A stretch of DNA of 62,580 nucleotides, filler included, from Candidatus Fermentibacterota bacterium (GTDB lineage: Bacteria > JAFGKV01), in the NCBI GenBank assembly GCA_016928395.1. It is 8 parts of 8 records of this genome, joined end to end, with 100 filler letters (N's around TTAATTAATTAA, not from the genome) between each part and the next. Parts side by side here need not be neighbours in the genome. Positions count along the whole stretch, not along the records: positions 20,009 to 30,769 come from JAFGKV010000316.1; 7 more parts are not named here. The stretch is one strand, 5' to 3'. Position 1 is the stretch's first letter, and every line of letters starts with the position of its first letter. Below are positions 5,765 to 59,848 of the stretch, piece by piece. Both the position numbers and the translations under genes were made by a program. The notes beneath the pieces are model-generated. The model searched no databases and was not told where the DNA came from. It saw nothing but the letters and a program-made list of their open reading frames with translations.

Positions 5765-5864
5765 NNNNNNNNNNNNNNNNNNNNNNNNNNNNNNNNNNNN
5801 NNNNNNNNTTAATTAATTAANNNNNNNNNNNNNNNNNNNNNNNNNNNNNNNNNNNNNNNNNNNN
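5765..5864. other. Artificial contig linker; identical linkers at 9069-9168, 19909-20008, 30770-30869, 40493-40592, 54985-55084, 59749-59848
   Basis: N44-TTAATTAATTAA-N44 (stops in all frames). Confidence 0.98.
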
Positions 5865-8980: not shown

Positions 8981-9441
8981 GCAGCGTCCGCAAGGCGCTC
9001 GAAAAGGGCCGGGGACGGTCCGGCGGTCTGGATCACCTGCTGGCGCATGCTAGAGTTGGGTGCCAGCANNNNNNNNNNNNNNNNNNNNNNNNNNNNNNNN
9101 NNNNNNNNNNNNTTAATTAATTAANNNNNNNNNNNNNNNNNNNNNNNNNNNNNNNNNNNNNNNNNNNNCACCCAAGGGCGCAATCGCTATCGCTATCGGA
9201 GCCGCAGCTCCGAGTACGAGTATGAGTACGAGGTCAGGATGTACTCTCAAACAAGGGCTGGGTCAGGACTGCCTACCAGCCCCTCCCTTTGGCAAAGGGA
9301 GGTTGGGAGGGATTTGCTCCTTCGCGACTGACGTCGCTCCTACAACCAGGTCGAACCACCACCCCACGTTTCGGATTTCCCGCGCAGCTTGGTCCAACAC
9401 CTGCGGATGCTGGGCGGCCCTACTGACGACCGGCTGAGCGT

Positions 9442-11010: not shown

Positions 11011-11141
11011 GGCCATGATGCGTCCGAACGCCGGGCCGTGGAGTGTTTCGCCCCGCCCAACCGCCCGGGACCTTGTCTATTCCCTCGCATGTCAACGACC
11101 CCTCATCTCGTGTCGGTGAATGCCTCAGAAAGGATGCGCCC

Positions 11142-14100
11142 ATGAGTGCCTCTTCCCGTGTGCTGCTTCGAGTCGTGTGTGTCGCAGGCATCTGTGCTGC
11201 AGCCGGATGGTGCGGGGAGACCGCAGTCTCTTCCTTCCCATTGCCCGGCGGCGGGGCCGGCGTCAGAGTCGCCCATCGGCACGAAGAGGGCGTGGCCGTC
11301 GCCTTGTCCTTCCCCCGGATCGACTGGCAGGATGTCCAAACCCCGCGCGGCACCATGGCGCTCATCGGCATGCCCGGTCTGAGCCACACGACCCGGATTG
11401 GTTTCCCGAAGCTCCCCGCGAGCCGGCGGATCATTGCCGTACCCTTTGGCGCCACCGTCGAGGTGGAGGCGACCGCTGCCGATACGCGGGAGTTCATGCT
11501 GGCCGACATGGGAATTCAGTATCCGCTGGCGCCGGCACAGCCGCCGATGCCCAAGAACCGATCGCCGGGCGATATGCCATTCTTGTTCGACACGGGAGCC
11601 TACGGCGCGGGCGGATTCGGGGAGAGCCCCCTCGCCTCGGCCCATGAGCTGGGGATTCTCCGTGGCCTCCGCCTGTTTTTGCTTGTCGTGGAGCCGGTGC
11701 GGTATGATCCGGTCGAACGAAAGATCATGGTCTACAATGACATCAAAGTCGAGGTGAGGTTCAACGGAGGGGATCGCCTCGAGACCCAGAGCCGCAGAGC
11801 CGCCTCATGGTCGCCATACTTCGAGGCCCACTACCGGCGCAACGTGCTCAACTACGAACCGCCGGCTCTTCTCTCGGATCTGACCCGCTATCCCGTGAAG
11901 TATGCCATCGTGGCCCATCCCCTTTTCCAGGCCCAGCTCCAGCCCTTCATCCAGTGGAAGACAATGAAGGGATTCGAGGTGGTGGTCGCCTATGTCGGCG
12001 ATCCCGATGTGGGAACGACCCCCGCCTCCATCAAGAACTACCTTCAGGGCCTGTATGATGGGGCAACCCCGACGAGCCCCGCGCCCAGTTTCGTGCTCCT
12101 GGTCGGAGATGTGGCCCAGGTGCCGCCTTGGCAGGGTACCACCGGCCAGCATGTCACCGATCTACCCTACGTGACTCTGGAGGGCGCCGACTACGTGCCG
12201 GATGTCTATGTCGGGCGTTTCTCGGCCAACACCTCCGACGAGCTGCAGCCCCAGATCGACAAGACCCTGGAGTATGAGCGATTCCAGATGGAGGATGCTG
12301 CGTTCCTGGGCGAGACGGTGATGATTGCCGGCATGGATCCGAACTTCGCGAATATCTGGGCCAATGGGCAGATCAATTACGGCACGACCTACTACTTCAA
12401 CGAGGATCACGGTATCCTCTCCCACACCTATCTGTACCCGGCCTCAGGGAGCCAGGCTGCCAGCATCATCGCGGATATCTCCCGCGGCGTCGGCTATGCG
12501 AACTACACCGCCCACGGCTCCGACCAGGGGTGGGGGAACCCCGCATTCGACGTCGGCGATATCAACGGTCTTCAGAACGCCCATCGGTATCCGACAGTAG
12601 TGGGCAACTGCTGCGAGACCAGCAGATTCGAGGTGCAGACCTGTTTCGCGGAAGCATGGCTCCGCGCCGAGGCCAAAGGCGCGGTCGGCTACATCGGCGC
12701 CAGTAACAGCTCGTTGTGGGACGAGGACTTCTGGTGGGGTGTGGGCGCCGGCACCGCGACGCAGCACCCAACCTATGAGGGCACCGGCCCCGGCGCGTAT
12801 GACGGCATGTTCCATGACCACGGCGAGCCGTTTCCCGACTGGTTCACCACGCAGTATGCCTTCATCATGGCCGGGTGCCTGGCGGTGGTGGAAGCCGGGA
12901 GCCAGGCTGCCGCGTACTACTGGGAGATCTACTCCCTGATGGGCGATCCCTCCCTGAGCACATACTTCGGAGTTCCATCGGCCAATCCCGTCGGCCATCC
13001 GTCCCAGCTTACCATCGGTGACATGGCCATGGAGGTGTTCGCCGAGCCCTGGTCATACGCGGCGCTGAGCCGCGAGGGGGCACTGCTGGCCTCGGCTCTC
13101 GTCGGCGAGAGCGGATCCGCGACCATGACCTTCCCGGCCCTGGCCTTGACAAGGGATCTGGACTTGGTGGTCACGCGCCAGAACCGGATACCCGCCTCTT
13201 CCCGCATCCAGGTGGCGCCAGGTGAGGGTCCCTGGCTCGTCATCTCCGGGGTGCAGATTGACGATACCCAGGGCGGCAATGGCGATGGCCAGGCCGACTT
13301 CGGCGAGGATCTTCTCCTGGCCCTTACCCTGCGCAACAGCGGCACCGAAGGCGCCCACGGCGTCGAGGCACTCCTCTGGACCATGGATCCCCATGTTGCC
13401 ATTGGTGACTCCCTGGAGTTCTACGGCGACATCCTTCCGGGGCAGGAGGTAACGCTCCCCGGGGCGTTCCTCCTGTCCGTCGCGCCCGAGGTCCCCGACA
13501 ACCGGGAACTCCGCATGGAGCTTGCGCTGAGTGATTCCGCCGGTCGAACCTGGCAGGACTACTTCGTCCTGACGGCCCATGCGCCGGTGATCCAGATCAC
13601 GGGCATCGAGGTGAACGACTCCGTGGGCAATGCCGACGGAGTCCTGGATCCCGGAGAAGGGGCCGATATCGAGATCACCATCGGTAACGATGGCGGCGCC
13701 GGGATTCTGGATGTGGTCGCAGTGCTCGTTTCGCTGGATCCGGCGGTCGCAGTCGGCGAGAGCCTTCAGACTACCGCTACCCTCTCACCCGGTGCGGAGT
13801 TCAGGGCCGTCTATCCCGTGACGGCGTCTCCCACCACTCTGCCCGGACACAGCGCCCGATTCCTGCTCCACATCACGGGAACCGATTATGCCGCCTGCGA
13901 TTCCTTCACCATCATGGTGGGCAGAGTCATCGAAGACTTCGAGACCGGAGATTTCTCCCTCTTTCCGTGGGTCATGGATGGCCATCAGCCATGGCGCATC
14001 ACGTCGGAGAATGCCGCCCAGGGGTCGTATGGCGCCGTGTCCGGCGCCATCGGCAACTCCCAGCGCTCGGGCATGATGGTCAGCCTCACCGTGGCGGAGC

Positions 14101-15608
14101 CGGGGGTCGTGTCGTTCCACTATCGGGTTTCCTCCGAGGCCTCCTACGACTTCCTCAGGTTCTACGTCGACGGCCAGCAGAAGCTGGCGGCCTCAGGCAA
14201 TGTCCCGTGGACCGTGGCCAGCATCGCCGTGGCGCCGGGAAGCCACAGCTTCAAGTGGAGCTACGAGAAGGACCAGTCAGTCAACCAGGGGCAGGACCGT
14301 GCCTGGGTCGACTACATCGTGTTTCCGGCTCTGGCTGATTCGTCGGTCTTTCCCGAGATCGAGGTATCGCCTTCTGGGTTCGACATCACCCTCTCTGCCG
14401 GGCAGTCGGTTGATGGACAACTCTTCGTCTCCAATCTCGGTACGGCAGATCTGATCTATGCGGTGCATGTCGCCGCCGCCGGCGGCCTGGCGATACGGTT
14501 TCCCACAAAGGCGGCCAAGGGCGCACCACGCCCGCTTGCCACATGCCCGCCACCCAAGGGGCAGGGTGGCCCGGATGGCCACGGCTACCGCTGGACCGAC
14601 AGCGACAGCGGCGAGGTGTTCTTCGAGTGGATTGACATCGGCGGATCCGGAACCTGCCCGGGCACGGACGATGACGGCAACTTCGGCCCCTTCGATCTGG
14701 GATTCCCGTTCTTGTTCTACGGCGCGGAGCGCACGGCTGTTCGGATCTGCTCAAATGGCTGGCTGTCGTTTACCTCGGAGGCGACCTCCTTCGCCCATGA
14801 GGATATCCCGTGTCCGGGTGAACCCAACAGCCTCATCGCACCCCTGTGGACCGACCTCGATCCGAGCAGCGGCGGCACCATCCGGTATCTCAGCGATCCC
14901 GGAGCCGGGCGTTTCATCGTGCAGTGGGATCAGGTGCCGTCCTACAGCGACACGCCCGATTCCTCATCCTATACATTCCAGGCCGTGCTGCACGCGGACG
15001 GCCAGATCCGCTACCACTACCTGAGGCTTGTTGGATCCGTGGAATTGTGCACCGTGGGCACGGAAGACTCCTCGGGCATGGACGGGCTGCGGATCGCGTA
15101 CAACCAGCCCTACCTCCACGATTCCCTGGCAGTGCTCATCGAGCCGGGCGAACCGTGGCTTCGCGTGGAACCCACCGCTGGCGTGATCGCTCCGGACAGC
15201 ACGAACGCCCTTGTGGTGACGTTCACCGGCGCGGGGCTCGCCGGGGGTTTCTACGAAGGCACGATCACGGTGCTCTCGAACGATCCAGACGAGTCGTCGG
15301 TGGCCATCCCCGTGGCACTTCGCATTGACCCCGCGGCGGCCGGCGAGGCTCGGGCACTCCCAATTCGCCTGTCGCTGGAGGCGGCGCCCAACCCGTTCCG
15401 GGGGTCGTGTCGATTCTTCGGTCAGGGTTTCGTCTCGCCGGACGCAGTGAGGATCTACGATATCCGGGGAGATTTGATCTGGCAGTGGGACGAGGGTACA
15501 AAGCCGGTGAGGTGGACTCCTGAAGCATCGGTGGGAAGCGGCGTGTTCGTCGTGCGCGCTTCCTTCGGCGAGCATGTCGATTCCAAGCGAATCGTGTACC
15601 TGAGGTAG
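11142..15608 (+). CDS. Gingipain-like C25 cysteine peptidase (propeptide, Kgp-like catalytic domain, Ig-like repeats, C-terminal sorting domain)
   Basis: LVGD, DVYVGRFSA, YANYTAHGS (catalytic His), GNCCETS (catalytic Cys), YWEIYSLMGDPS; C-terminal PNPF..IYDIRG..SGVFVVR. Confidence 0.9.
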   Translation: MSASSRVLLRVVCVAGICAAAGWCGETAVSSFPLPGGGAGVRVAHRHEEGVAVALSFPRIDWQDVQTPRGTMALIGMPGLSHTTRIGFPKLPASRRIIAVPFGATVEVEATAADTREFMLADMGIQYPLAPAQPPMPKNRSPGDMPFLFDTGAYGAGGFGESPLASAHELGILRGLRLFLLVVEPVRYDPVERKIMVYNDIKVEVRFNGGDRLETQSRRAASWSPYFEAHYRRNVLNYEPPALLSDLTRYPVKYAIVAHPLFQAQLQPFIQWKTMKGFEVVVAYVGDPDVGTTPASIKNYLQGLYDGATPTSPAPSFVLLVGDVAQVPPWQGTTGQHVTDLPYVTLEGADYVPDVYVGRFSANTSDELQPQIDKTLEYERFQMEDAAFLGETVMIAGMDPNFANIWANGQINYGTTYYFNEDHGILSHTYLYPASGSQAASIIADISRGVGYANYTAHGSDQGWGNPAFDVGDINGLQNAHRYPTVVGNCCETSRFEVQTCFAEAWLRAEAKGAVGYIGASNSSLWDEDFWWGVGAGTATQHPTYEGTGPGAYDGMFHDHGEPFPDWFTTQYAFIMAGCLAVVEAGSQAAAYYWEIYSLMGDPSLSTYFGVPSANPVGHPSQLTIGDMAMEVFAEPWSYAALSREGALLASALVGESGSATMTFPALALTRDLDLVVTRQNRIPASSRIQVAPGEGPWLVISGVQIDDTQGGNGDGQADFGEDLLLALTLRNSGTEGAHGVEALLWTMDPHVAIGDSLEFYGDILPGQEVTLPGAFLLSVAPEVPDNRELRMELALSDSAGRTWQDYFVLTAHAPVIQITGIEVNDSVGNADGVLDPGEGADIEITIGNDGGAGILDVVAVLVSLDPAVAVGESLQTTATLSPGAEFRAVYPVTASPTTLPGHSARFLLHITGTDYAACDSFTIMVGRVIEDFETGDFSLFPWVMDGHQPWRITSENAAQGSYGAVSGAIGNSQRSGMMVSLTVAEPGVVSFHYRVSSEASYDFLRFYVDGQQKLAASGNVPWTVASIAVAPGSHSFKWSYEKDQSVNQGQDRAWVDYIVFPALADSSVFPEIEVSPSGFDITLSAGQSVDGQLFVSNLGTADLIYAVHVAAAGGLAIRFPTKAAKGAPRPLATCPPPKGQGGPDGHGYRWTDSDSGEVFFEWIDIGGSGTCPGTDDDGNFGPFDLGFPFLFYGAERTAVRICSNGWLSFTSEATSFAHEDIPCPGEPNSLIAPLWTDLDPSSGGTIRYLSDPGAGRFIVQWDQVPSYSDTPDSSSYTFQAVLHADGQIRYHYLRLVGSVELCTVGTEDSSGMDGLRIAYNQPYLHDSLAVLIEPGEPWLRVEPTAGVIAPDSTNALVVTFTGAGLAGGFYEGTITVLSNDPDESSVAIPVALRIDPAAAGEARALPIRLSLEAAPNPFRGSCRFFGQGFVSPDAVRIYDIRGDLIWQWDEGTKPVRWTPEASVGSGVFVVRASFGEHVDSKRIVYLR

Positions 15609-19908: not shown

Positions 19909-20008
19909 NNNNNNNNNNNNNNNNNNNNNNNNNNNNNNNNNNNNNNNNNNNNTTAATTAATTAANNNNNNNNNNNNNNNNNNNNNNNNNNNNNNNNNNNN
20001 NNNNNNNN

Positions 20009-20101
20009 ATCCCGGGGATCATCAAGACGGAGACTTCGATTCTGATGAGCTACGAAAAGCGAGACTACTACTGGGGCACCGCTTCAGACGAAAACGGTTA
20101 G
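20009..20101 (+). CDS. Lrp/AsnC regulator C-terminus (partial)
   Basis: IPGIIKTETSILMSYEKRDYYW* resembles the end of the AsnC ligand-binding domain. Confidence 0.55.
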   Translation: MPGIIKTETSILMSYEKRDYYWGTASDENG

Positions 20102-20328
20102 CAGCCTCCGGCAACGTGTCTGTTCAACTCAAAGATTAGCCGTTCCGGATCCTCAACTCCTTTCAAGGACAACAGCTCGCCAAGGCTGCCCCAAAACGGG
20201 TCTCCGCACTGGACGCATACTACACCGCGCTGAAGCAGCCAGTGCATCGCTTCGGGCCAAGTATCCACAATCCACTGGATCGGTGTCTCGGCGGTGATCG
20301 GTAGCTCCTGAGCCGCACTGTCAACCAT
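20098..20328 (-). CDS. DUF1858-domain small protein
   Basis: IT..TPI..IVDTWPEA...GVVCVQCG...SLGEL...KGV. Confidence 0.7.
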   Translation of the reverse strand: MVDSAAQELPITAETPIQWIVDTWPEAMHWLLQRGVVCVQCGDPFWGSLGELLSLKGVEDPERLIFELNRHVAGGC

Positions 20329-20445
20329 GCTTCGCCTCCCGACGCGCGTGTGGGATGCTCGGGGCTCGCCGTGGCGGGCCGTCCCACTTTTCGATTTTTT
20401 TTTCGCCCAAACTTCGGTTTTTCCACGATACTACCAACTCTTTCC

Positions 20446-20474
20446 TTGATTTCCGCAGTATGTGCCACTATAAT
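20446..20474 (+). promoter_or_regulatory. Sigma70 promoter of the methylamine operon
   Basis: TTGATT-17nt-TATAAT; RBS AAGGAGG before GTG 20512. Confidence 0.7.
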
Positions 20475-20511
20475 CAGAAAACAGAGTCACGTCGAGTCAA
20501 GGAGGGTTGTC

Positions 20512-22002
20512 GTGAAAGTAGTAATTCCGAAAGAACTGCTGGATAAGGCCAATCTGATAGGGGGGGTTTGGAGTAATGCAGAATCCGGGAAGACCTTCGA
20601 GGTTCAGAGCCCGGTGACGGGCGAGGTGATTGCCAAGGTCCCGCTCTGCGATACTGCGGATGTGGAAAAGGCCGTGCAGGCCGCCAGAAGAGTACGAGAC
20701 GAGTTCAAGGACACTCCCGTGCTGCGGAGAGTGGAGCTGTGCAACAGAATCAAGCAGCTCGTTCTGGAGAGGAAGGAGATCATTGCGAAGGTCATGACCC
20801 TGGAACAGGGGAAGCCCTGCGAGGGAGAGTCGATTCCGGATTTGGACGAAACCGCCCTGTTGTTCACGGACTTCGCCGAAGACATCGTCAGGCTGGAAAT
20901 GGACACGTATCCTCTGAAGGACCCAAACAAGATGGCCTTCTCGGTGCGCGAGGCGATAGGTGTGACTGCGGTGATCACTCCGTGGAACTACCCGGTGTTG
21001 ATCCCGGCGGAATACATCGCTCCTGCTCTTGTCGTCGGTAACCCGATCGTCTTCAAGCCCGCATCGTACACTCCCCTGTCGGCGATCCTGTTCGCGCGCT
21101 GCATTCAGGACGCTCTGGACGAGCTTGGGTTCCCCAAAGGGATCTTCAACTTGATCACGGGCCCCGGAGGCAGTGTGGGCAACCATCTGGTCGGTCACCC
21201 TCACGTGGACTGCATCGCGTTCACGGGGGAAACGGTCACAGGGCAGGCGATCTGCAGCCGTGCCGGACTCAAACGAACGCTCATGGAGCTCGGGGGCAAT
21301 GGCCCTCAGATCGTGTGTGACGATGCAGACCTCGCAAAAGCTGCCGCCGCTGCCGCCTTCGGCTGCTACACGAACGCGGGGCAGGTTTGCTGTGCAACGG
21401 AACGAATCCTGGTAGACGCGAGGGTCCACGACAAGTTCGTGAAGCTAATGCTCGAGGAAACGGAGAAATGGAAGGTGGGGGACCCATTTGACAAGAAGAC
21501 GAACGTGGGGCCTCTGAACAACGAGCCTACGGCCGCGAAGACGGAAACTCACCTGGACGATGCGGTGAAAAAGGGCGCCAGGATCCTGGTGGGTGGCAAG
21601 CGGGAATCCGGACGGCCCACCGGGTTGTACTTCCAGCCCACCGTCATCGACGGGGTGACCCCGAGCATGCTCCTGAACAAGGAGGAGACCTTTGGGCCCG
21701 TTGCTCCCATCATCAGCTTCGAGAGCGACGAGGAAGCAGTCCAGATCGCTAACGGCAGCGGGTACGGGCTGCAGATGGCGGTCTTCACATCCTCGATCAA
21801 GAAATGCTTCTTCTATTCCAAGAAGCTGAGAACCGGCACGATCGTGGTCAACGACACCACCGACTACTGGGAAGACCTGTATGTTCCTTTTGGTGGAGGC
21901 GGCGGGACCAAGAGCGGGCACGGTCGCATTGCCACCCATTTTACCATGGAGGATCTCACGTATATCAAGACGACGACCATTGATTTTGCCAACGCAAAGT
22001 GA
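20512..22002 (+). CDS. NAD(P)-dependent aldehyde dehydrogenase
   Basis: ITPWNYP, KPA, FTGE, MELGGN, NAGQVCCA, EETFGP. Confidence 0.95.
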   Translation: MKVVIPKELLDKANLIGGVWSNAESGKTFEVQSPVTGEVIAKVPLCDTADVEKAVQAARRVRDEFKDTPVLRRVELCNRIKQLVLERKEIIAKVMTLEQGKPCEGESIPDLDETALLFTDFAEDIVRLEMDTYPLKDPNKMAFSVREAIGVTAVITPWNYPVLIPAEYIAPALVVGNPIVFKPASYTPLSAILFARCIQDALDELGFPKGIFNLITGPGGSVGNHLVGHPHVDCIAFTGETVTGQAICSRAGLKRTLMELGGNGPQIVCDDADLAKAAAAAAFGCYTNAGQVCCATERILVDARVHDKFVKLMLEETEKWKVGDPFDKKTNVGPLNNEPTAAKTETHLDDAVKKGARILVGGKRESGRPTGLYFQPTVIDGVTPSMLLNKEETFGPVAPIISFESDEEAVQIANGSGYGLQMAVFTSSIKKCFFYSKKLRTGTIVVNDTTDYWEDLYVPFGGGGGTKSGHGRIATHFTMEDLTYIKTTTIDFANAK

Positions 22003-22026
22003 GAACAGAACACTAAGGAGGAGAGC

Positions 22027-23292
22027 ATGAAACGTGTCCTGTACGTAGGCCTGTTGCTGCTCGTAGGCGCGGCAGTCGTGTTCGCTGGGGGAAAGAAGGA
22101 GGCGCCGGCCGTGGAGGGAACCGCCGCGTCCGGAGTCGTCAAGATCGGCTTCCTGGCTCCACTTACCGGGGATGCTGCAGCTTGGGGGCTGCCCGGGCTC
22201 TATGGGGCGCAGATGTGGATGGAGGATGTCAACGCCGCGGGAGGAATCAAGGCCGGCGGCAAGTCGTACAAGGTCGAGCTCGTGACGTACGACGAGGAGA
22301 ACGTGGCCTCGAAGGCGTTGCTCGGGGCCAAGAAGTTGGTTCTGGAAGACAAGGTGGCGGTTGTGCTCATGATGGCGGGAGCCACGGTAACGGCCTGCCA
22401 GTCCTTCTTCACCGAGAACAAGGTTCTCTCGATGAGCCTGGCACCGTACGACACCAGGGCGGAAGCGCCGTACCACCTCTGTGCTGCGGAGCCGTCCCTA
22501 GTGTATCATCTCGCCTCAATCCCTTATATCGCGAAGACGTACCCCAACGTGAAGCGGGTGGCGATTGTCGCCCAAGATGACGAAATCGGCCGCCAGGGGC
22601 TTGCGTATCTGCGCGCTGCCTGCGAGTCCGCGGGCCTGCAGGTCGTGTACGACAAGTTCTACGGGTTCGAGACCACGGATTTCGCGCCGATCATGACGGC
22701 GATCCTCAATGCCAAGCCCGACCTGATCAGTTTCGACGGGGGCTATTCCTACTACGTCGAGCTCCTGGCCGAGCAAGCGTATCTGATGGGGTTCGAGGGT
22801 ATCATCGAGAGCTCGGAGTTCTTCCTCAGCTCGCTACTGGCGAAAGTCCCTGCAGACTGGGCCGAAGGCGCCGTGGCGTCCTTCGCCGACTGGGACGACC
22901 CGAAACTCCCGAAGTACTGCCACGATTTCTATGCGGAGTACACCCAGCGCTGGCCTGGGCAGTGGGGTGCGGTTTCCTGGGAGTACGCCGCCAACCTCGA
23001 CATCTGGAAGTTCGGAGTGGAGAGTGCCGACAGCATTGATCCCATGGAAGTCTTCAAGGCACTCAAGTCCGCCGAGACGATTCCGCACGTGTACGGTGAG
23101 GGTGTGTGGTCCGGCAAAGAGATCTGGGGCATCGACAACTTCCTGGCGACACCGTGGCACAACACGGAGGTCAGGAATGGGAAACACGTCATCGTGAACA
23201 CTCAGCCGATTCTCGGGTGGTTCTATCAACCAGGGAACAAAGAGATACTGCTCAAGCATCTGAAGGCGGCGGGTGTGTACTACGTGAAGTAA
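22027..23292 (+). CDS. Branched-chain amino acid-type ABC substrate-binding protein
   Basis: Signal peptide; VKIGFLAPLTGDAAAWG..VNAAGGI. Confidence 0.9.
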   Translation: MKRVLYVGLLLLVGAAVVFAGGKKEAPAVEGTAASGVVKIGFLAPLTGDAAAWGLPGLYGAQMWMEDVNAAGGIKAGGKSYKVELVTYDEENVASKALLGAKKLVLEDKVAVVLMMAGATVTACQSFFTENKVLSMSLAPYDTRAEAPYHLCAAEPSLVYHLASIPYIAKTYPNVKRVAIVAQDDEIGRQGLAYLRAACESAGLQVVYDKFYGFETTDFAPIMTAILNAKPDLISFDGGYSYYVELLAEQAYLMGFEGIIESSEFFLSSLLAKVPADWAEGAVASFADWDDPKLPKYCHDFYAEYTQRWPGQWGAVSWEYAANLDIWKFGVESADSIDPMEVFKALKSAETIPHVYGEGVWSGKEIWGIDNFLATPWHNTEVRNGKHVIVNTQPILGWFYQPGNKEILLKHLKAAGVYYVK

Positions 23293-23377
23293 GAGGCACC
23301 TGGTAGACAGTGCGCGGCCCGTTGGCCTGCAGCCAGAGTCATCGGCGTCTGCCGACGGGCCGCATCTGCTCCAAGCC

Positions 23378-24238
23378 ATGTCAATCATCCTGCAGACCTT
23401 GGTCAACAGCCTTATCACCAGCTCCTTCTACATGCTGATCGCAGTCGGGTTGACTCTCGTCTTTGGAGTGATGAACATCGCCAATTTTGCCCATGGCGAG
23501 TTCTACATGGTGGGAGCCTACACGGTCTGGCTTCTCTACAGTGTGGGAAAGATCCCTTTCTTTGTCTCCGTCCTCGTCGCACTTGTGGTGGTGTGTGCGA
23601 TAGGGGTCGTCGCCGAACGGGTCTTGTTTCGCCGAGTGTACGGCAATGTCCTCGGCGGCTTCATCATCTCGATAGGACTGGTGTTCATTCTACAGGTCCT
23701 GGTGGGTCAGATATGGGGCGTAGGCATGATGAAGCCGGTCCCCAAGGTCTTTCCCGGCTCGTTGAGCGTCCTTGGAATCAGTGTTGGCTGGCAGAGATTC
23801 ATCGTCGTCCCCTGCACTGGGTTCCTGCTGGCGGTTCTGTGGTTCTTTCTCGCCAAGACGAAGACGGGGAGGGGACTGCGGGCGGTAGCCCAGGATCGCG
23901 AAGCCGCGATTCTGCATGGGATCGACGTGAATCGGTGCTGTGCCGTCGCCATGGGCCTCGGCAGCGCCATGGCTGCGGCCGGTGGAGCCCTCATGGCTCC
24001 GATTGTTTCGGTGTACCCTTACATGGGGCACTCGGTGGTCTGGACCGGATTCGTTATCGTCATCGTGGGAGGGGCAGGCAACATCAAAGGCACGATCCTG
24101 TCCGCCCTGTTCTTCGGATTCCTGCACACCATCGTGGCGACGGTCCTTGACTCGACGATCGGGAATCTCGTAGGTGTGCTTTGCATGCTCATCATCCTGG
24201 CGATCAAGCCCGAAGGTCTCGCAGGTGAGAGGGAATAG
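23378..24238 (+). CDS. livH: ABC permease LivH-like
   Basis: GLTLVFGVMNIANFAHGEFYM; GRGLRAVAQD. Confidence 0.92.
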   Translation: MSIILQTLVNSLITSSFYMLIAVGLTLVFGVMNIANFAHGEFYMVGAYTVWLLYSVGKIPFFVSVLVALVVVCAIGVVAERVLFRRVYGNVLGGFIISIGLVFILQVLVGQIWGVGMMKPVPKVFPGSLSVLGISVGWQRFIVVPCTGFLLAVLWFFLAKTKTGRGLRAVAQDREAAILHGIDVNRCCAVAMGLGSAMAAAGGALMAPIVSVYPYMGHSVVWTGFVIVIVGGAGNIKGTILSALFFGFLHTIVATVLDSTIGNLVGVLCMLIILAIKPEGLAGERE

Positions 24239-25226
24239 CGCTTCCCTGCCCATTACGCTGATCTCCTGGATCGCCGTCATCGCGGTCTTTCTTGTCCTCC
24301 CCTTTGTCGTCGGTCCGTATCTGCTGGAAGTGATGATCATGCTCCTCATCAACATCGTGGTCGTGGCCAGCTTCCGGCTCATTACCATGACCGGGGGGTG
24401 GTCGCTGGCTCACATCCCCTTGGTCGGGGTCGGCGCCTACTCGGCGGCCCTTCTGTCGAAGCACTTCGGGGTCTCGTTCTGGCTGAACCTTCCCCTGGGA
24501 GGATTGACTGCCGCGTTTGTTGCCGCGGCGATCTGCTATCCGCTGCTGCGCATGAAGGGCTTCGCGTTCTTCATCGGCTCTTTTGCGGCCGGCGAAGCCA
24601 TCCGCTTGTGCTGGATCCGTTTCCGCAATCCCTTCGGCGGTCCGCGGGGGCTGATCGACATAGCCGGTGCGGGAAGCCTTCGGGTGGCCGGGCTGTTCTC
24701 CTTGAATCTGGATTCCGGGATTCCGTTCTACTTCCTGACAGTCCTGGTCACGCTGATTTGCCTATACCTCATGCACCGGCTGGGCGATTCCCGCATAGGC
24801 GTCACCCTCGAAGCGATTCATATCCATGACAATCTGGCGAAGAGTCTGGGGATTCCGGTCACGAAATACCGGGCCCTTGCCTTCATTGCAGGCGGCTTTT
24901 TCGCCGGGGTGGCCGGCGCGATGCTCGCTCACCGCTTGCGAACTATCGATCCGCATCAGTTCGGGTTCACCACGACGCTGTACCTGCTGCTTTGGGCAAT
25001 CGTCGGCGGCACGACCACGTTCGCGGGCCCGCTGCTGGGCATTGTTGCTCTAACGGCAATCGGAGAGCTGATACGGCGGTTCAGCGAGTGGGTGCCCCTG
25101 ATCTATGGCGTCATTCTGATTGTTGTGGTTCTCTTTTTCCCGCAGGGGCTCGAGAGTCTTCCCGCGCGGATTCCGTTCTTGCTGAAGAAGTACGGGATCG
25201 CCCAGAAAGGGAAGCCGAGAAAATGA
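24225..25226 (+). CDS. livM: ABC permease LivM-like
   Basis: GGWSLAH..GVGAY; AIVGG...GPLLG; FFPQGL; probable GTG start at 24225. Confidence 0.9.
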   Translation: MRGNSASLPITLISWIAVIAVFLVLPFVVGPYLLEVMIMLLINIVVVASFRLITMTGGWSLAHIPLVGVGAYSAALLSKHFGVSFWLNLPLGGLTAAFVAAAICYPLLRMKGFAFFIGSFAAGEAIRLCWIRFRNPFGGPRGLIDIAGAGSLRVAGLFSLNLDSGIPFYFLTVLVTLICLYLMHRLGDSRIGVTLEAIHIHDNLAKSLGIPVTKYRALAFIAGGFFAGVAGAMLAHRLRTIDPHQFGFTTTLYLLLWAIVGGTTTFAGPLLGIVALTAIGELIRRFSEWVPLIYGVILIVVVLFFPQGLESLPARIPFLLKKYGIAQKGKPRK

Positions 25227-25269
25227 CCCACAGGGGCAACCGAGGCGTGATGGAGGGCGGACTGCAGAG

Positions 25270-26028
25270 ATGGCCCTGTTAGAGCTGGCAGGTCTCACCA
25301 AACGTTTCGGTGCCCTGGTTGCCGTGGACGAGTTGAACGTCTCCATCGAAAGGGGGGAGATTCGGGGACTGATCGGCCCGAACGGCTCCGGCAAGACCAC
25401 GGTTTTTAACCTGGCCACCGGCTTCTACAGGCCGTCGGCCGGACGAGTCCTATGGCAGGGCGAAGACGTCACGCTCTTGTCCCCGGAACGCAGAGCGAAA
25501 TTGGGCATCATCAGGACATTTCAGCAAGCAGCCCTTTTCGGCGAGATGACAGTGGTGAACAACGTGATCGTGGCCTGTCATCTTCATCTGGACGTCGGGC
25601 TTGCGGGTCAGTTCTTGAAAACCCCCAAGATGAGAGCCGTCCAGAGAAGGATCGAGGCCAGGGCTGACGAGATCCTGGAATTGATGGGGCTTCTCGAGGT
25701 GAAGCACGAAGTCGCGGGCGATCTGCCTCACGGTTCGCAGCGTGTCTTGGGCATCGCCATGGCGCTGGCGTCGCAGCCGCAGCTCCTGCTGCTCGATGAA
25801 CCGGCCGCAGGCATGAATCCGGTGGAGACCGAGCGCTTGATGTCGATCATCCGTATGCTGCGCGACAAGGGAACAACGATGTTCCTGGTGGAGCATGACA
25901 TGAAAGCAGTCATGAGCACTTGCGACAGAATCACGGTCATGGACTTTGGGCAAGGGATCGCGGAGGGTACGCCGCACGAGGTTGCAAAGAACGCTGCGGT
26001 TATCGAAGCGTACCTCGGCGGGGGATAG
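25270..26028 (+). CDS. livG: ABC ATPase LivG-like
   Basis: GPNGSGKTT, LLLDEPAAG, VEHDM, VIEAYLG. Confidence 0.93.
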   Translation: MALLELAGLTKRFGALVAVDELNVSIERGEIRGLIGPNGSGKTTVFNLATGFYRPSAGRVLWQGEDVTLLSPERRAKLGIIRTFQQAALFGEMTVVNNVIVACHLHLDVGLAGQFLKTPKMRAVQRRIEARADEILELMGLLEVKHEVAGDLPHGSQRVLGIAMALASQPQLLLLDEPAAGMNPVETERLMSIIRMLRDKGTTMFLVEHDMKAVMSTCDRITVMDFGQGIAEGTPHEVAKNAAVIEAYLGGG

Positions 26029-26031
26029 GCT

Positions 26032-26736
26032 ATGCTGCGCATAGAGAATCTTGTCGTTCACTACGGGGGAGTCGCAGCGCTAGACGGGATATCCCTGGAG
26101 GTCGAAGAGGGGAGCATCGTCACCCTCATCGGAGCGAACGGTGCCGGCAAGAGCACCTGCCTCAAGGCGGTATCCGGTCTCGTGAGGCCGACCTCCGGCG
26201 AGATCTGGTTTCAGGGCACACGCATCGACGGTATGAAACCGCAGCGAATCGTGAAGATGGGTATCGTGCAGGTTCCTGAAGGGCGCAGATTGTTCCCGTA
26301 CATGAGCGTCTTTGACAATTTGCTGACGGGGGCTCATCTCCGAAAGGACCAGGAGCAGATTGCCCGCGATTTGGACGGGGTGTACCGGTACTTCCCGATC
26401 TTGCTAGAGAAGCGCAAACAGGCCGCCCGGAGCCTGAGCGGCGGGCAGCAGCAGATGGTTGCGTTCGGCCGCGGGCTCATGGCCCACCCGAAGGTGTTTC
26501 TCTTTGACGAGCCGTCACTCGGCTTGGCGCCGATGCTGGTGCGGGAAGTTGGAGAGCATATCAGGCAGCATGCAGAGGAAGGATACACGATCGTGCTGGT
26601 GGAACAGAACGCGAACTTGGCCCTCGCGCTGGCGGACCGGGCGTACGTTCTGGAAAGAGGAAGAATCGTCCTGGAAGGAGCCGCCAAAGAGCTTCGGGAC
26701 AACGAATACGTGAGGAAGGCGTACCTCGGCATATGA
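26032..26736 (+). CDS. livF: ABC ATPase LivF-like
   Basis: GANGAGKST, VPEGRRLF, LSGGQQQM, DEPSLGLAP, VEQN. Confidence 0.93.
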   Translation: MLRIENLVVHYGGVAALDGISLEVEEGSIVTLIGANGAGKSTCLKAVSGLVRPTSGEIWFQGTRIDGMKPQRIVKMGIVQVPEGRRLFPYMSVFDNLLTGAHLRKDQEQIARDLDGVYRYFPILLEKRKQAARSLSGGQQQMVAFGRGLMAHPKVFLFDEPSLGLAPMLVREVGEHIRQHAEEGYTIVLVEQNANLALALADRAYVLERGRIVLEGAAKELRDNEYVRKAYLGI

Positions 26737-26781
26737 TCGTGCTGTCGGCGAAGCCGGGCATGCAGCCGTCCGGAGGCGAAT

Positions 26782-28206
26782 ATGAAGGGTGACAAGATAC
26801 TGACCCGCATGGGTGACGGCGAACGTGTATGGATGGCGATCGAACAGGCCAGGGAGGACGTGGCTCTGGGCAGTCAGGACGCGGGGAAGAAGGGCAACAT
26901 CGCGGAACTGTGCGCCGAGGATCAGGAACGGCTGCTGGCGATCCTGGCCGAGCCCGGACGGATCGTGAGCGTCAGCCCCGGCGAAGAAGTGGTTGTCACT
27001 GACGACGGCGCTGCGCTCATTCTCTGCAGCGGCTCAACGGACGGCGGGTCCGGACTGGCGATCGACCGCCAGCCCGCGATCTTGGCCTACGAGCGGACCT
27101 TCGCCCCCGATACGGTCTCCACGGGGATTCATGACTACAGCTTCAAGCCGGTCAAGGCGATCATGAGCAATGAGCGCCAAGCCTACGCTTCGACGGTTCT
27201 CTTGACGACTGCACCGCTGTTCTACGGTTCCCAGCCCAACCTCGGGTTGTACTTCCAGCCCGACGGGCCTCATCCCAACCCCGCGGAGCTGCTGCCGAAG
27301 GGTGACGTTCAGGGTGCTCGGCAGTCGCAGGAGGAAGCGGCAGCCCACCTTACCAGAGACATGGTGTTCGTCGGAGAGAGCCTCTACGAGATGGGGTGCG
27401 AGGGGCTCAATTTCGACACAGCCGGATCAGCCGGCGATGCCGATTTTTATGCCGCCCTGATGGCGATTGAGCAGCTCAAGATGTCGGCGCCAAACATGGC
27501 GATCGAGGTCGGCATGGCGGGGGAGTTCGTCCTGGGGATGCACGGGCAAATCGTCTATCGCGGCGAGCGCCTGGCCGGCATGTTCCCCCATCAGCAGGTC
27601 AAGATGGCCGAGGCGGCGGGGGCGGACATCTTCGGCCCTGCGGTCAACGTGAACACTTCCCGTTCGTTCGCGTGGAATCTCGCTCGGGCCGTGACCTTCG
27701 TGAAGGCCACGGTGGAAGCTGCCGGGATTCCCGTGCACGCCAATGTCGGCATGGGGGTGTGCGGTGTTCCGATGTGCGTGGAAACCCCGATCGACTGCGT
27801 TACGCGAACCACGAAAGCCCTGGTGCAGATTGGGAAGATCGATGGGTTGTAGCTGGGCGTAGGGGACGCTTTCGGGATGCCCCTGGCGCATATCATGGCT
27901 GCAGGCATGGGAGGCATCCGGACTTCCGGAGATCTGGTGGCCTGGATGCAGATGCGACGAAAGATGCGGATTGCCGAAGCCAAGCGGTATGTGGCGAAAA
28001 ACCTGGGCATAGACCTGATCGACTTGACGAACGAGGAGGTCATGTACCAGCTGCGGCAGGATCTGGGAATAGGAGTGGTGACCGGGGTGCCAGGAGACCC
28101 GGAAGGAATCGTGGCAAAGTGCAGGATTGCCCAGCTGCTGGGGATATCCATCAACTCCGTCGATCGCTTTGTATCGAGTCTGTCGTTCTTGAAGGGAAGT
28201 CAATAG
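26782..28206 (+). CDS. mtbB: Dimethylamine:corrinoid methyltransferase MtbB, 474 aa, with pyrrolysine (TAG) at codon 357 (27850-27852)
   Basis: RMGDG, DYSFKPVK, PLFYG.QPNLGLY..PDGP, NFDT...GD.D, WNLARAVTF; DGL*LGVGD aligns with methanogen DGI(O)IGVGD; homology continues in frame (MPLAHIMAAGMGGIRTSGDLVA). Confidence 0.93.
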
Positions 28207-28224
28207 AGGGGAGCTGACCGGAGC

Positions 28225-28872
28225 ATGCTTTCAGACGACCTGATCGAGCGCGCCAATCAGACGGTTCTCGGCTTTGACACACAAGGTGCCGTCGCTCTCG
28301 TCGAAGAGCTCATCTCCTCCGGAGGAGATCTCCTGGAATTGATGGACAGGGCCTACATCCCCGCAATCGGTGAGATCGGCGAGCGCTTCAGCTGCGGGCA
28401 GGTGTTTCTGCCGGAGCTCATTCAAGCGGCCAACGTGATGAAAGCGGTCACGGAAATGGTGAGCCGGGCCTTACCCAAAGAGGCGACGAGGCCCGCAGGG
28501 GCAAAGTTCGTCATCGGTACCGTCGAGGGCGATATCCACGACATCGGGAAGACCCTGGTCGTGACCCTGCTCGAGGTGCACGGCTTCACGGTCTATGACC
28601 TGGGAAGAGACGTCAGCTCCAAAAGACTCATCGCGAAAGCAGTCGAAGTGGATGCCGGCATCATCGGAACGAGCGCCCTGCTGTCTACCACAATGGAGAA
28701 ACAGAAAGAGCTCGTGCAGGCGCTCACGAAACCCGAATACAAGGGGCGCTTCAAGACGATGGTCGGCGGTGCTCCGGTGACGCGCCGTTGGGCCGAGAGG
28801 ATCGGAGCGGACGGTTACGGCGAGAATGCTCACGAGGCGGTGGTGAAGGCGAAGGAGCTTAGCGGCCCGTAG
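28225..28872 (+). CDS. mtbC: Cognate corrinoid protein
   Basis: FLPELIQAA; GTVEGDIHDIGK (DxHxxG B12 motif); SALLSTTM; VGGAPVT..WAERIGADGY. Confidence 0.92.
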   Translation: MLSDDLIERANQTVLGFDTQGAVALVEELISSGGDLLELMDRAYIPAIGEIGERFSCGQVFLPELIQAANVMKAVTEMVSRALPKEATRPAGAKFVIGTVEGDIHDIGKTLVVTLLEVHGFTVYDLGRDVSSKRLIAKAVEVDAGIIGTSALLSTTMEKQKELVQALTKPEYKGRFKTMVGGAPVTRRWAERIGADGYGENAHEAVVKAKELSGP

Positions 28873-29014
28873 GAGCCATCCGGCGGATGTCAAGACCGCT
28901 CGCCGCGACGCCGCCATCCTGCCCGCAGCGGGGGCGCCTTCGCCAGTTTCCATATCGAAATCACGAATTATGCAAGGAAGACCGCTTTCAATTTCGAAAT
29001 ATGCGATGGAATAC

Positions 29015-29043
29015 TTGAGTATTCTTGAATTACGTACTAAGGT
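29015..29043 (+). promoter_or_regulatory. Possible internal promoter in an AT-rich gap
   Basis: TTGAGT-17nt-TAAGGT. Confidence 0.4.
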
Positions 29044-29102
29044 AGGAGTGAAATAACGCTATCTCCAGCGGCCAAGCGTGCCTGCACCGAGGAGGTTCGA
29101 TC

Positions 29103-30302
29103 GTGAAGATTGCGGTATTGGGAGGGGCGGGCCTGATGGGCTCGGGGACCGTGCGAGATCTGGTTTCCCGGGAATCCGCTGGAATCGACCGGGTGATCGT
29201 AGCAGACATAGACCTGGACAAGGCGCGGCGGCTTGTCGATAGCCTCGGTGACAAACGGCTGGAGCCAGCCCGCCTAGACGTTCGGGATCGCCGGAGCTGC
29301 CTGGCGGTTCTGAAGGCAGTGGACATCTGCATCAACGGCGTACCTACGTTTGCGGGATTTCAGATGGACATCTTCCACTGCTGCCTGGAGGCCAAGTGCC
29401 ACTACATTGACTTCGGCGGAATGGGGATCTACACACCCCAGCAGAAAGCCGAGCACGACGCTTGGAGCCGAGCCGGGGTGACCGCGATCCTGGGCCTGGG
29501 GTCCGACCCCGGCATGTCGAATGTACTGTGCAAGGCCGTGGCGGAACAGCTGGAGGAGATCGACAAGATCAGTCTCTATTGGGCGTCGAAGTTGGTGGGT
29601 GACGAGAATCCGGTACTCGTGCCTCCGTACAGTATTTCGACGCTGCTCGGGGAATACGCCAACAACAGCAAGCAATTCATAAACGGCGAGCTTGTGGACA
29701 AACCACCGCTCAGCGGAGAGGTGTCTCTCGTGCTGCCGCCGCCCTTTGGCCAAACCGAGTTCGTGCATTCGCAGCATTCGGAACCGCTCACCGTTCCCTT
29801 CGCCAAGGGAATCAAGGACAAGGGGATCAGAGAATTCACCTGGCGTCTCCATCTCCCGGAGAAGGAACATGAGGTGTACAAGAGTCTCGTCAAAGTAGGA
29901 TTCGGGGAGTTTGCCGTTCCGATCGACTTTAGAGGCATGAGCGTCGCGCCCGCCGAGTTCCTCGAGGCTCTGATCGCCCGAAACATCGAGAGGAACCGGC
30001 ACAGGATCCCCCACCAGGATGCCTACGAGATCCACCTGGCCATCGGCGAAGGCAGAATGAACCGCAAGAAGACCACCGTGCAGTGCATGGTTTTCGTGGC
30101 TCCGGATCCGTTCTACACAGACTACAACGATGCGGCTACTTCGATGAACGCCTCGATTGGAGCTCAGCTCCTGGGACGACCGAAGCCAGTTCCCGGCGTA
30201 TGGGGGCCGGAGGAATACTACAATGTACAGGAATACTTCTCGGAACTAAAGAAGAGGCACTTCAAGATTACTCTCGCGGTGACAACGGAAGAGGAACTCT
30301 AG
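29103..30302 (+). CDS. Saccharopine dehydrogenase / lysine 6-dehydrogenase-family oxidoreductase
   Basis: MKIAVLGGAGLMG Rossmann fold; HYIDFGG; GLGSDPGMSN; HSEP; PGVWGPE. Confidence 0.85.
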   Translation: MKIAVLGGAGLMGSGTVRDLVSRESAGIDRVIVADIDLDKARRLVDSLGDKRLEPARLDVRDRRSCLAVLKAVDICINGVPTFAGFQMDIFHCCLEAKCHYIDFGGMGIYTPQQKAEHDAWSRAGVTAILGLGSDPGMSNVLCKAVAEQLEEIDKISLYWASKLVGDENPVLVPPYSISTLLGEYANNSKQFINGELVDKPPLSGEVSLVLPPPFGQTEFVHSQHSEPLTVPFAKGIKDKGIREFTWRLHLPEKEHEVYKSLVKVGFGEFAVPIDFRGMSVAPAEFLEALIARNIERNRHRIPHQDAYEIHLAIGEGRMNRKKTTVQCMVFVAPDPFYTDYNDAATSMNASIGAQLLGRPKPVPGVWGPEEYYNVQEYFSELKKRHFKITLAVTTEEEL

Positions 30303-30430
30303 CCGGTCCGAGGCCTTTCGGTCGGGGGGTACTCGGGCCGCAGACCTCTCACCCCCATCTCGCCGGGGTTTCACCTTGACATTCCTGCACGCCTCCACTC
30401 TCATAGACAATCAGGGCACCGCCTAGAAAC

Positions 30431-30769
30431 ATGGACTACCGACTGTCCAAGTCCAAGTATCTCACCGGCCTGAACTGCCTGAAGGCGCTCTGGCTCACGA
30501 TCCGCGATCCGGGCAAGGCCGCTCCGCCCTCGCCCGCCCAGGAGTACATCTTTGCGCAGGGCACGAGGGTCGGGCTCGTGGCCCAGGAGTGCTTCCCTGA
30601 GGGGGTTCTGGTGGCCGCACCCTCGTACCAGGCTCCTGCTGCCCTGGCGGAGACCCGGGCGCTCGTAGCCGGAGGGGTGCCGGCTGTGTTCGAGGCCGCC
30701 TTCTTCCACGATAACATCCTGGTGCGGGTCGACGTGCTGCGCCGCTCGGCCGAGGTCGGGCACGATGCC
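30431..30769 (+). CDS. DUF2779-associated PD-(D/E)XK-like protein N-terminus (partial)
   Basis: LSKSKYLTGLNCLKALWL..G..VG..A...FP.G..FEAAF..RVDVL. Confidence 0.7.
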
Positions 30770-30949
30770 NNNNNNNNNNNNNNNNNNNNNNNNNNNNNNN
30801 NNNNNNNNNNNNNTTAATTAATTAANNNNNNNNNNNNNNNNNNNNNNNNNNNNNNNNNNNNNNNNNNNNGAGATAGGTGCGCTGTCCACCAGCGAGCGGT
30901 GCGCCGGAGACGGGCGCGGGAGCGCCGACGTCGGAGGCGTCAGCGTGAG

Positions 30950-40492: not shown

Positions 40493-40865
40493 NNNNNNNN
40501 NNNNNNNNNNNNNNNNNNNNNNNNNNNNNNNNNNNNTTAATTAATTAANNNNNNNNNNNNNNNNNNNNNNNNNNNNNNNNNNNNNNNNNNNNAGGCTAGT
40601 GGTCTCAGTAATACACTTTCAACACCAACGTCCCGTACGCCCGTGATAAGGATTCAGGGTGAAGACCATCGGCGCCGGCTGACTGTGCCGCCCTTTGGCC
40701 CTGACGGATGAGAGCATTGGAACGATTTGCAGTTGCCCCTGCGCCACTCACGATGCTTCGAGAAGGAAGTCAGCCAGGTTGAGGCGACGGATGCCGTCGA
40801 TGTCGTCTCCAAAAGCGGGGTCCATGCTGACGACGAGCTTGAAGTAGTTGTCAGGTGGGGCTTGC

Positions 40866-54922: not shown

Positions 54923-55084
54923 GAATTGAGGCGGCCTCCCCGCCTCTGGTTATCTTGAGATAGACACGAACTCAAGGATCCAGANNNNNNNNNNNNNNNN
55001 NNNNNNNNNNNNNNNNNNNNNNNNNNNNTTAATTAATTAANNNNNNNNNNNNNNNNNNNNNNNNNNNNNNNNNNNNNNNNNNNN

Positions 55085-59600: not shown

Positions 59601-59848
59601 GCTCGCTTCGCGAGCCGGCTCGGAGTTCAGGGTTCGGGGTTCAGTCTGGCCTCTGAGGACGCGGGCTCCCTCAGAATTCTCAGGGTTGAGAGTACGCTAC
59701 ACAGTGGCAAATCGGTCGCCCTTCGCTGCACGGGCGGGCACAGAGTCCNNNNNNNNNNNNNNNNNNNNNNNNNNNNNNNNNNNNNNNNNNNNTTAATTAA
59801 TTAANNNNNNNNNNNNNNNNNNNNNNNNNNNNNNNNNNNNNNNNNNNN

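Follow-up and report, generated by a model that had tools for sequence, protein, structure and literature searches.

To our knowledge, all enzymes described so far as containing pyrrolysine (Pyl) remove methyl groups from tri-, di- or monomethylamine. Members of the MttB superfamily without Pyl handle quaternary amines (glycine betaine, proline betaine, carnitine and gamma-butyrobetaine) with corrinoid partners; encoded together with transporters and corrinoid proteins, they offer a precedent for diversification of the family onto larger N-methyl substrates in anaerobic bacteria. Here we analysed a stretch of 62,580 nucleotides, referred to as the window, from the Candidatus Fermentibacterota bacterium assembly GCA_016928395.1. 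One contig in it (JAFGKV010000316.1) carries a Pyl-containing methyltransferase of the dimethylamine type, MtbB, and a corrinoid protein in one cluster with genes for an aldehyde dehydrogenase (ALDH), a Liv-type ABC importer and an NAD(P) oxidoreductase of the saccharopine dehydrogenase (SDH) family. This gene context suggests that the substrates of Pyl-dependent dimethylamine-type methyltransferases may include N-methylated compounds of a larger size than dimethylamine itself. Tentatively, and short of calling it probable, we read the cluster as an AsnC-controlled operon for the breakdown of an imported N-methylated amine or amino-acid-like compound, in which demethylation would precede deamination.

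The closest described counterparts are the MtbB/MtbC systems of methanogens (Methanosarcina and Methanomassiliicoccales). As in these, the window MtbB scores above the TIGR02368 cut-off, has its TAG in the same column, is accompanied by a PYLIS element and adjoins a B12-binding corrinoid protein. However, it is only 47-49% identical to six archaeal copies, its host is bacterial (an ECF sigma factor and a type IX secretion system (T9SS) sorting domain are encoded on other contigs of the bin), its corrinoid protein falls below the MtbC equivalog cut-off (182 vs. 350), and it is set among ALDH, ABC importer and SDH-family genes, an arrangement seen in none of the six archaeal loci. It groups at 60-64% identity with bacterial copies (L001, L002, L108 and L142). 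Unlike the members of the MttB superfamily that lack Pyl and handle quaternary amines, the window MtbB keeps Pyl, which points to a non-quaternary amine as its substrate. Bacterial MtbB with in-frame Pyl is also found in marine Deltaproteobacteria, whose several MttB copies and single MtbB are read, in the main text of PMC8318568, as serving the use of trimethylamine and dimethylamine. In that main text, supplements aside, the terms 'aminotransferase' and 'aldehyde dehydrogenase' do not occur, and a link of MtbB to SDH-family, ALDH and Liv genes is not described.

Gene products of the cluster

All genes of the cluster lie on the + strand, and the features below are on that strand unless stated otherwise. 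The mtbB gene (26782-28206) encodes a product that matches PF09505 with 613 bits over residues 7-464 (463-position profile) and TIGR02368 with 519.4 bits against a cut-off of 369.1. Its single internal TAG, the predicted pyrrolysine codon 357 (27850-27852), falls in the same column as the single TAG of all 15 full-length homologues aligned. A PYLIS_2 element (RF02509; 27850-27949) begins at this TAG and scores 66.9 bits, where the gathering score is 36 (E 5.7e-14). The gene also ends in TAG, and this terminal stop is in frame with the mtbC ATG six codons on (28204-28227); read as pyrrolysine it would give a 696-residue MtbB-MtbC fusion, and the shared frame may be chance, the odds being one in three. 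The corrinoid protein (28225-28872) matches PF02310 (84.8 bits) and PF02607 (59.5 bits) and contains the DxHxxG motif as GDIHDIG. It scored under both MtbC-type cut-offs (NF041607, 182.4 vs. 350; TIGR02370, 181.2 vs. 215.3), and we therefore name it MtbC from its position only. A 155-nt contig from an RNA library matches mtbC at 28681-28826 without difference; this match does not show transcription.

SDH-family enzymes interconvert amines and aldehydes through an imine in NAD(P)-linked reactions. The SDH-family product of the cluster (29103-30302) matches PF03435 (76.8 bits) and PF16653 (35.1 bits). It shares with the carboxy(nor)spermidine dehydrogenases, saccharopine reductases and lysine 6-dehydrogenase (LysDH) of PF03435 the two-domain fold and an N-terminal GxGxxG motif, but it is only 18-20% identical to carboxyspermidine dehydrogenases and LysDH and belongs to a conserved subfamily of its own. 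When its structure model (pLDDT 92.3) was compared with solved structures, the nearest folds were the carboxyspermidine dehydrogenases 8h4z and 8deb (TM 0.82-0.84, 19% identity). The LysDH 3abi gave TM 0.72 at 18% identity (profile E 3e-9, N-terminal half only), and the saccharopine reductase 1ff9 gave TM 0.72, with 13-15% identity to saccharopine reductases. No NCBIfam equivalog cut-off was reached by the enzyme; as a carboxy(nor)spermidine dehydrogenase it fails the sequence match, with 21.8 bits to NF043000 against a cut-off of 800. The subfamily has at least 1271 relatives (best 72% identity), which bear only the generic name 'saccharopine dehydrogenase family', those of the ESM Atlas included. 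The closest homologues, P0003-P0008, are 66-72% identical; P0006 (70%) is labelled 'lysine 6-dehydrogenase' by one source, an automatic name.

The ALDH gene (20512-22002) has a GTG start after AAGGAGG, and its product matches PF00171 with 490 bits over profile positions 1-460 of 461. The catalytic motifs ELGGNGP and GQVCC are present in the translation. It reached no NCBIfam equivalog (lactaldehyde dehydrogenase, 411 vs. 650; betaine aldehyde dehydrogenase, 377 vs. 669; succinate-semialdehyde dehydrogenase, 368 vs. 646), and with 243 bits to NF050084 it also stayed under the piperideine-6-carboxylate dehydrogenase cut-off of 730. Among enzymes of solved structure, those most closely related to it are dehydrogenases of omega-amino or omega-carboxy aldehydes. 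The ALDHs nearest to it, at 60, 59, 52 and 47% identity (L015, L033, L045 and L010, respectively), are all neighbours of SDH orthologues. In a quick tree, the ALDH beside MtbB in L107 was the nearest of 29 sampled ALDHs to the clade of the window, L015 and L045 enzymes (SH-aLRT 99). An SDH-family amine dehydrogenase followed by an ALDH recalls lysine catabolism through lysine 6-dehydrogenase and piperideine-6-carboxylate dehydrogenase; however, the window ALDH is not of the latter type and the window SDH-family enzyme does not appear close to solved LysDH.

Between ALDH and mtbB lie genes for a LivK-type (Peripla_BP_6) binding protein (22027-23292; PF13458, 161 bits), a LivH/UrtB-type permease (23378-24238; PF02653; TIGR03409 at 178.6 bits, under the cut-off), a LivM-type permease (24174-25226; PF02653 (BPD_transp_2) over residues 50-319), a LivG-type ABC ATPase (25270-26028; PF00005 and PF12399; NF008449, 267 bits vs. 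362) and a LivF-type ABC ATPase (26032-26736; PF00005; NF008626, 243 bits vs. 441). The listed open reading frame (ORF) of the LivM-type permease overlaps the preceding gene by 65 bp, and its true start is probably downstream of 24174. Peripla_BP_6, two BPD_transp_2 proteins and two ATPases with the BCA C-terminal motif identify a HAAT-family (LivKHMGF/Urt-type) importer; no subunit reached a Liv or Urt equivalog cut-off. The binding protein is distant from solved amino-acid binders, with only weak relatives in the PDB (4n0q and 3ipc, E ~1e-12).

Upstream of these genes, the contig opens with the 3' end of a putative Lrp/AsnC-type regulator gene (20009-20101; 30 codons and the stop), cut by the contig start. 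The fragment was detected by tblastn; the Pfam scan took ORFs of at least 90 residues and so did not show it. Across 25 residues it shares 64% identity with the C-terminus of an AsnC protein encoded in L015 (L015:8709-9248), which has both PF13404 and PF01037.

Layout of the contig

The cluster fills one whole contig of 10,761 bp (20009-30769), whose edges bound both flanks. It runs from the Lrp/AsnC 3' fragment through a promoter-like site to the genes for ALDH, the LivKHMGF-type importer, MtbB, the corrinoid protein and the SDH-family oxidoreductase. The intergenic gaps from ALDH to SDH are 24, 85, an overlap, 43, 3, 45, 18 and 230 bp. Ribosome-binding sites stand at the gene junctions with regular spacing, and both GC (0.58-0.62) and GC at third codon positions (GC3, 0.74-0.80) are even across all nine genes. 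There is one promoter-like site and there are no terminator-like sites between the + strand genes. The promoter candidate, upstream of ALDH (20446-20474; TTGATT-17-TATAAT), is sigma-70-like with 10/12 positions, a match to the consensus only; position 20446, from which the original prediction for this DNA had counted the cluster, is its -35 hexamer. The 230-bp gap that precedes the SDH-family gene holds two copies of a 15-nt box, TTTC(C/A)AT(A/T)TCGAAAT, 39 nt apart (28947-29000). They may be an operator; the promoter region ahead of the ALDH gene holds no counterpart of the box.

Five of the nine operon genes (LivH, LivG, MtbB, MtbC and SDH) end in TAG. Amber is thus a common stop in this organism, and insertion of Pyl must compete with termination.

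The cluster is a real, unusual operon, and it looks like a single operon serving an imported amine. The original prediction had named these genes, described them as one co-oriented cluster beside an Lrp/AsnC regulator and proposed import of an amino-acid-like substrate. Pfam or NCBIfam matches bear out every named gene and its + orientation, the regulator is there as the 30-codon fragment at the contig edge, and the layout is operon-like.

The window as a whole is made of eight contigs or contig pieces of one binned assembly, chained by seven N44-TTAATTAATTAA-N44 linkers (5765-5864, 9069-9168, 19909-20008, 30770-30869, 40493-40592, 54985-55084 and 59749-59848). Adjacency across the linkers is therefore meaningless, and the rest of the window is not physically linked to the cluster. 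On the cluster contig itself, two further ORFs lack Pfam matches: one of 76 residues, with a CxxC motif, on the - strand between the AsnC fragment and the promoter (20098-20328), and a partial one of 113 residues that reaches the contig end (30431-30769, +). Other contigs of the bin encode a T9SS C-terminal sorting domain and a C25 (gingipain-type) peptidase, at 46713-48752 and 11043-15605. Provided that the bin is clean, both are hints of a host from the FCB group or a candidate phylum. Another carries an aldehyde:ferredoxin oxidoreductase (AFOR) gene (44643-46376, -; PF01314 and PF02730), which is the enzyme type that adjoins SDH orthologues in L009 and G814.

Neighbourhoods in other genomes

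Scanning metagenomes with an aligned set of SDH orthologues, we obtained 80 loci (51-67% identity), 56 of which have at least 3 kb of flank on one side or more. An ALDH gene lies within 3 kb of the orthologue in 29 of the 80 and within 300 bp in 21. The order in L015 is ALDH (60%), a major facilitator superfamily transporter, AsnC and SDH (58%); the window shares this frame, with the Liv importer and MtbB/MtbC in place of the L015 transporter. In G814, a 60% orthologue follows Peripla_BP_6, LivG/F/H/M-type genes, a glycosyltransferase-like gene, an APH-type kinase and AFOR. The constant pairing with an aldehyde-oxidising enzyme suggests that the SDH-family enzyme would run catabolically, from amine to aldehyde, and the usual partnership of the subfamily with ALDH or AFOR speaks for catabolism rather than polyamine synthesis.

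Other neighbours of the 80 orthologues include Cupin_3 proteins (18/80), Pot-type ATPases (11/80) and APH-type kinases (6/80). Many orthologues (L016, L057, L060, L064, L076, L077 and L196) come with a recurring set of a transporter, a glycosyltransferase-like gene and an APH-type kinase, sometimes an NTP transferase, a Cupin_3 protein, ALDH or AFOR, and then SDH. This set suggests an undescribed pathway that has no counterpart in the minimal cluster of the window. N-demethylating flavoenzymes were dropped as evidence, their occurrence near the orthologues being sporadic (Oxidored_FMN, 2/80; DAO, 2/80; GCV_T, 1/80; amine oxidase, 1/80).

From the side of MtbB, a scan of species-representative genomes gave eight loci, two bacterial (61-62% identity) and six archaeal (47-49%), and in none of the eight were relatives of the SDH, ALDH or LivK/H/M products encoded within 10 kb. 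MtbB was rare in two phyla sampled (1/401 and 3/401 genomes) and common and multiplied in two orders (7/13 genomes, one with only a 36-residue fragment, and 23/151 genomes), where a genome may hold as many as 10 copies. Those 23 genomes contain 69 MtbB places; at five of them the distance to an SDH-family gene is below 4 kb (start to start), where 0.69 would be expected (P = 7e-4 under uniform placement, and 5e-3 if two orthologous loci count once). The SDH-family genes were confirmed by Pfam in L191, L193, L194 and L195, and in L192 by tblastn alone; a sixth such neighbour was found in G812. These six fall into three subfamilies, 24-29% identical to each other and 23-26% to the window enzyme. 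Judged by this divergence, at least four unrelated SDH lineages, that of the window included, appear to have come to adjoin bacterial MtbB. AsnC genes lie between MtbB and the SDH-family gene in L191 and L192, and of 20 further loci, two (L201 and L210) carry Liv-type importer genes next to MtbB.

In the regions retrieved around bacterial MtbB, class-III aminotransferases were encoded at 8 of 23 loci and, in a second set, at 4 of 20, often together with MttB paralogues, Pot-type ABC transporters or amino-acid permeases, ALDH or AFOR, and agmatinase-like genes. For example, L107 reads aminotransferase, FMN reductase, ALDH (43%), MtbB, SDR and amino-acid permease, and L142 reads permease, aminotransferase, MttB, MtbB, MtbC, MttB, Pot-type ABC and agmatinase-like. 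By contrast, none of the six archaeal MtbB loci has SDH, aminotransferase, ALDH or AFOR, or amino-acid, polyamine or Liv-type transporter neighbours. The aminotransferase beside MtbB at L002:13042-14370 matches NF041362 at equivalog level (541 bits vs. 525), a transaminase which we take to belong to a pathway whose amine product is then N,N-dimethylated.

Five genomes (G814, G882, G002, G911 and G812) carry 5-10 MtbB paralogues each, 44-62% identical to that of the window and with one TAG each. G814 also gave 21 SDH-family matches. No MtmB with an in-frame stop was found in a set of five MtbB-rich genomes examined for it. MtmB-family genes without one occur in G810 (e.g. C41:6318-7670), G812, G002 and G801 with 236-324 bits, and up to 15 such matches, full-length or fragmentary, occur in one genome; this looks like an expansion of non-Pyl MtmB in these MtbB-rich genomes. 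Since the MtmB-family genes in the five genomes so examined have no in-frame stop, methylamine is probably not the end product there. The diversity of MtbB paralogues together with the absence of Pyl-MtmB fits primary-amine end products rather than methylamine.

Order of the reactions and alternatives

From gene context we infer functional coupling, the order of the steps and the class of substrate. The Liv-type ABC system would import a compound with a secondary N-methylamine group (R-CH2-NH-CH3). MtbB would pass the N-methyl group, by means of pyrrolysine, to the Co(I) corrinoid protein and leave the primary amine R-CH2-NH2; the methyl group would then go to tetrahydrofolate through a methyltransferase encoded elsewhere. 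The SDH-family enzyme would oxidise the primary amine with NAD(P)+ via an imine to an aldehyde and ammonia, a chemistry that is that of lysine 6-dehydrogenase, and ALDH would turn the aldehyde into the acid. Coupling rather than chance adjacency is indicated by mtbB and mtbC standing inside the SDH/ALDH pair behind one promoter-like site, and by the apparent recruitment of SDH-family genes to MtbB loci independently several times. Four observations favour demethylation as the first reaction. The class-III aminotransferases in the position equivalent to that of SDH handle a primary amine and cannot release dimethylamine. This order explains the SDH and ALDH pairs without MtbB, where the unmethylated amine would be taken. 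It also explains the many divergent MtbB paralogues and the varied amino-acid and polyamine transporters. Lastly, methylamine is probably not the end product in the five MtbB-rich genomes, whose MtmB-family genes all lack an in-frame stop.

Several observations weigh against this reading. The full gene set was found nowhere else among the genomes and loci searched. MtbB, MtbC or LivK/H/M accompany none of the 80 SDH orthologues, and none of 43 annotated bacterial MtbB regions combines a window-type SDH orthologue with ALDH and a Liv importer, so that the conserved four-part set of mtbB, SDH, ALDH and Liv on which the original prediction had staked itself did not appear. Nine MtbB-bearing genomes gave no match better than 27-35% identity and thus no SDH orthologue; among 23 further ones it occurred once, in G814, away from any listed MtbB. 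The neighbourhood statistics rest on a simple uniform null and on related genomes. The 230-bp gap with its repeated boxes means that the SDH-family gene may be a separate transcription unit, and with five of nine genes stopping at TAG, read-through must be conditional. The MtbB score exceeds the NCBIfam cut-off for the dimethylamine methyltransferase equivalog (TIGR02368), which by family assignment would make plain dimethylamine the default substrate, and we know of no demonstration of a larger amine as substrate of any Pyl enzyme. A PDB sequence search with MtbB gave no match, and so no solved structure for comparison of the pocket. The nearest folds to the SDH-family enzyme act on secondary amines, and LysDH 3abi is more distant. 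Genes for pylTSBCD, a corrinoid:tetrahydrofolate methyltransferase and a corrinoid activase were not seen on the contig or in the window, which has no tRNA; in the relative L106, PylC-like and PylD domains adjoin MtbB.

The reactions may also run the other way round, as the original prediction had it. A tertiary amine, R-CH2-N(CH3)2, would be imported, the SDH-family enzyme would cleave it through an iminium to an aldehyde and dimethylamine, ALDH would take the aldehyde, and MtbB/MtbC would convert dimethylamine to methylamine. The operon and pairing evidence serves this order equally, MtbB would keep its canonical substrate in line with the equivalog-level score, and the enzymes whose folds are nearest to the SDH-family product make or break C-N bonds that link an aldehyde with an amine partner, not with ammonia. 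In L191, L192 and L194, where non-Pyl MttB, MtbB and an SDH-family gene occur together, a quaternary amine could lose one methyl group and then yield dimethylamine on cleavage. However, we know of no SDH-family member that acts on tertiary amines, methylamine would be left over although Pyl-type MtmB was not seen in five related MtbB-rich genomes, and the aminotransferases at the equivalent position in other MtbB loci go unexplained. Because SDH and ALDH pairs are widespread without MtbB (0/80), the released dimethylamine would need another fate in those loci. We regard this order as unlikely.

We hold it equally improbable that the cluster contains an ordinary dimethylamine system, possibly with Liv uptake, beside a separate amine-catabolic pair of ALDH and SDH that shares its nitrogen or amine regulon or a genomic island. 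The TIGR02368 match at equivalog level agrees with it, as do the uniqueness of the gene set to this contig, the 230-bp gap ahead of the SDH-family gene, and loci in which only MtbB and MtbC were found (L001, L108, L199, L203 and L209). The position of mtbB and mtbC speaks against it, since they sit inside a pair that is otherwise adjacent or split only by a transporter and a regulator, and four independent SDH lineages beside MtbB stand against 0.69 pairs expected. Genes for converting amine to aldehyde and for oxidising aldehyde recur at bacterial MtbB loci and are absent from the six archaeal ones, and we know of no Liv-type uptake of dimethylamine. A described parallel in its favour is the reading, in the main text of PMC8318568, of marine Deltaproteobacteria with Pyl-MttB and Pyl-MtbB as users of trimethylamine and dimethylamine.

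That the contig is an assembly chimera joining DNA of two organisms, with an artefactual mtbBC linkage, comes to mind for a short metagenomic contig in a binned, concatenated assembly whose gene junctions no single public contig bridges, but is very improbable given the uniform GC and GC3, the regular spacing with ribosome-binding sites at the junctions, and a sequencing run from another study (X2) that covers 27 of 30 contig bins at similar low depth, with near-identical short pieces on the ALDH, LivK, LivM, LivG, mtbC and SDH genes.

Demethylation before deamination thus stays our preferred order, and the interpretation given in the original prediction holds in part. Its placing of the SDH-family enzyme and ALDH in one pathway agrees with a conserved pair (ALDH within 3 kb in 29 of the 80 loci), the operon stands, and bacterial MtbB genes repeatedly have SDH-family genes, Liv-type importers and AsnC regulators as neighbours. 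Conservation of the full set fell away, and release of dimethylamine by the SDH-family enzyme found no direct support, with the class-III aminotransferases at the SDH position left unexplained. The alternative that it had also raised, a larger secondary amine as the MtbB substrate, agrees better with the comparative data than its main order does.

Bacterial Pyl-MtbB is already known; its pairing with SDH-family, aminotransferase, ALDH or AFOR, and amino-acid or polyamine transporter genes was not found described in the literature searched. The search found no paper that links mtbB with a saccharopine dehydrogenase or other SDH-family gene, within coverage that ended before supplementary tables, which may list neighbourhoods, and no paper on an SDH-family and ALDH gene cluster. 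By the titles and abstracts of the papers checked, PMC6778437 among them, a larger secondary amine has not been proposed as an MtbB substrate.

A wider extension, which we consider doubtful, is that the Pyl-MtbB paralogues of anaerobic bacteria are diversified demethylases for larger secondary N-methylamines rather than dimethylamine enzymes, and that the operon is a complete route of import, demethylation by means of Pyl and corrinoid, deamination with NAD(P) by a novel SDH subfamily, and aldehyde oxidation. Substrates in that case may be N-methyl amino acids, N-methyl omega-amino acids or N-methyl polyamines. Even on a conservative reading, the recurrent pairing around bacterial MtbB is a testable pattern. 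Should Pyl-MtbB act on an N-methyl compound of larger size, the 22nd amino acid would serve a wider range of substrates, and sediments would hold an anaerobic route by which N-methyl amino acids and abundant methylated osmolytes could be fully demethylated. In concert with MttB paralogues, both Pyl and non-Pyl, betaine-type osmolytes would be stripped of all methyl groups stepwise without oxygen, and the end product would be a primary amine, not methylamine. A large SDH subfamily with no name of its own (at least 1271 proteins) would also gain its first clue to function.

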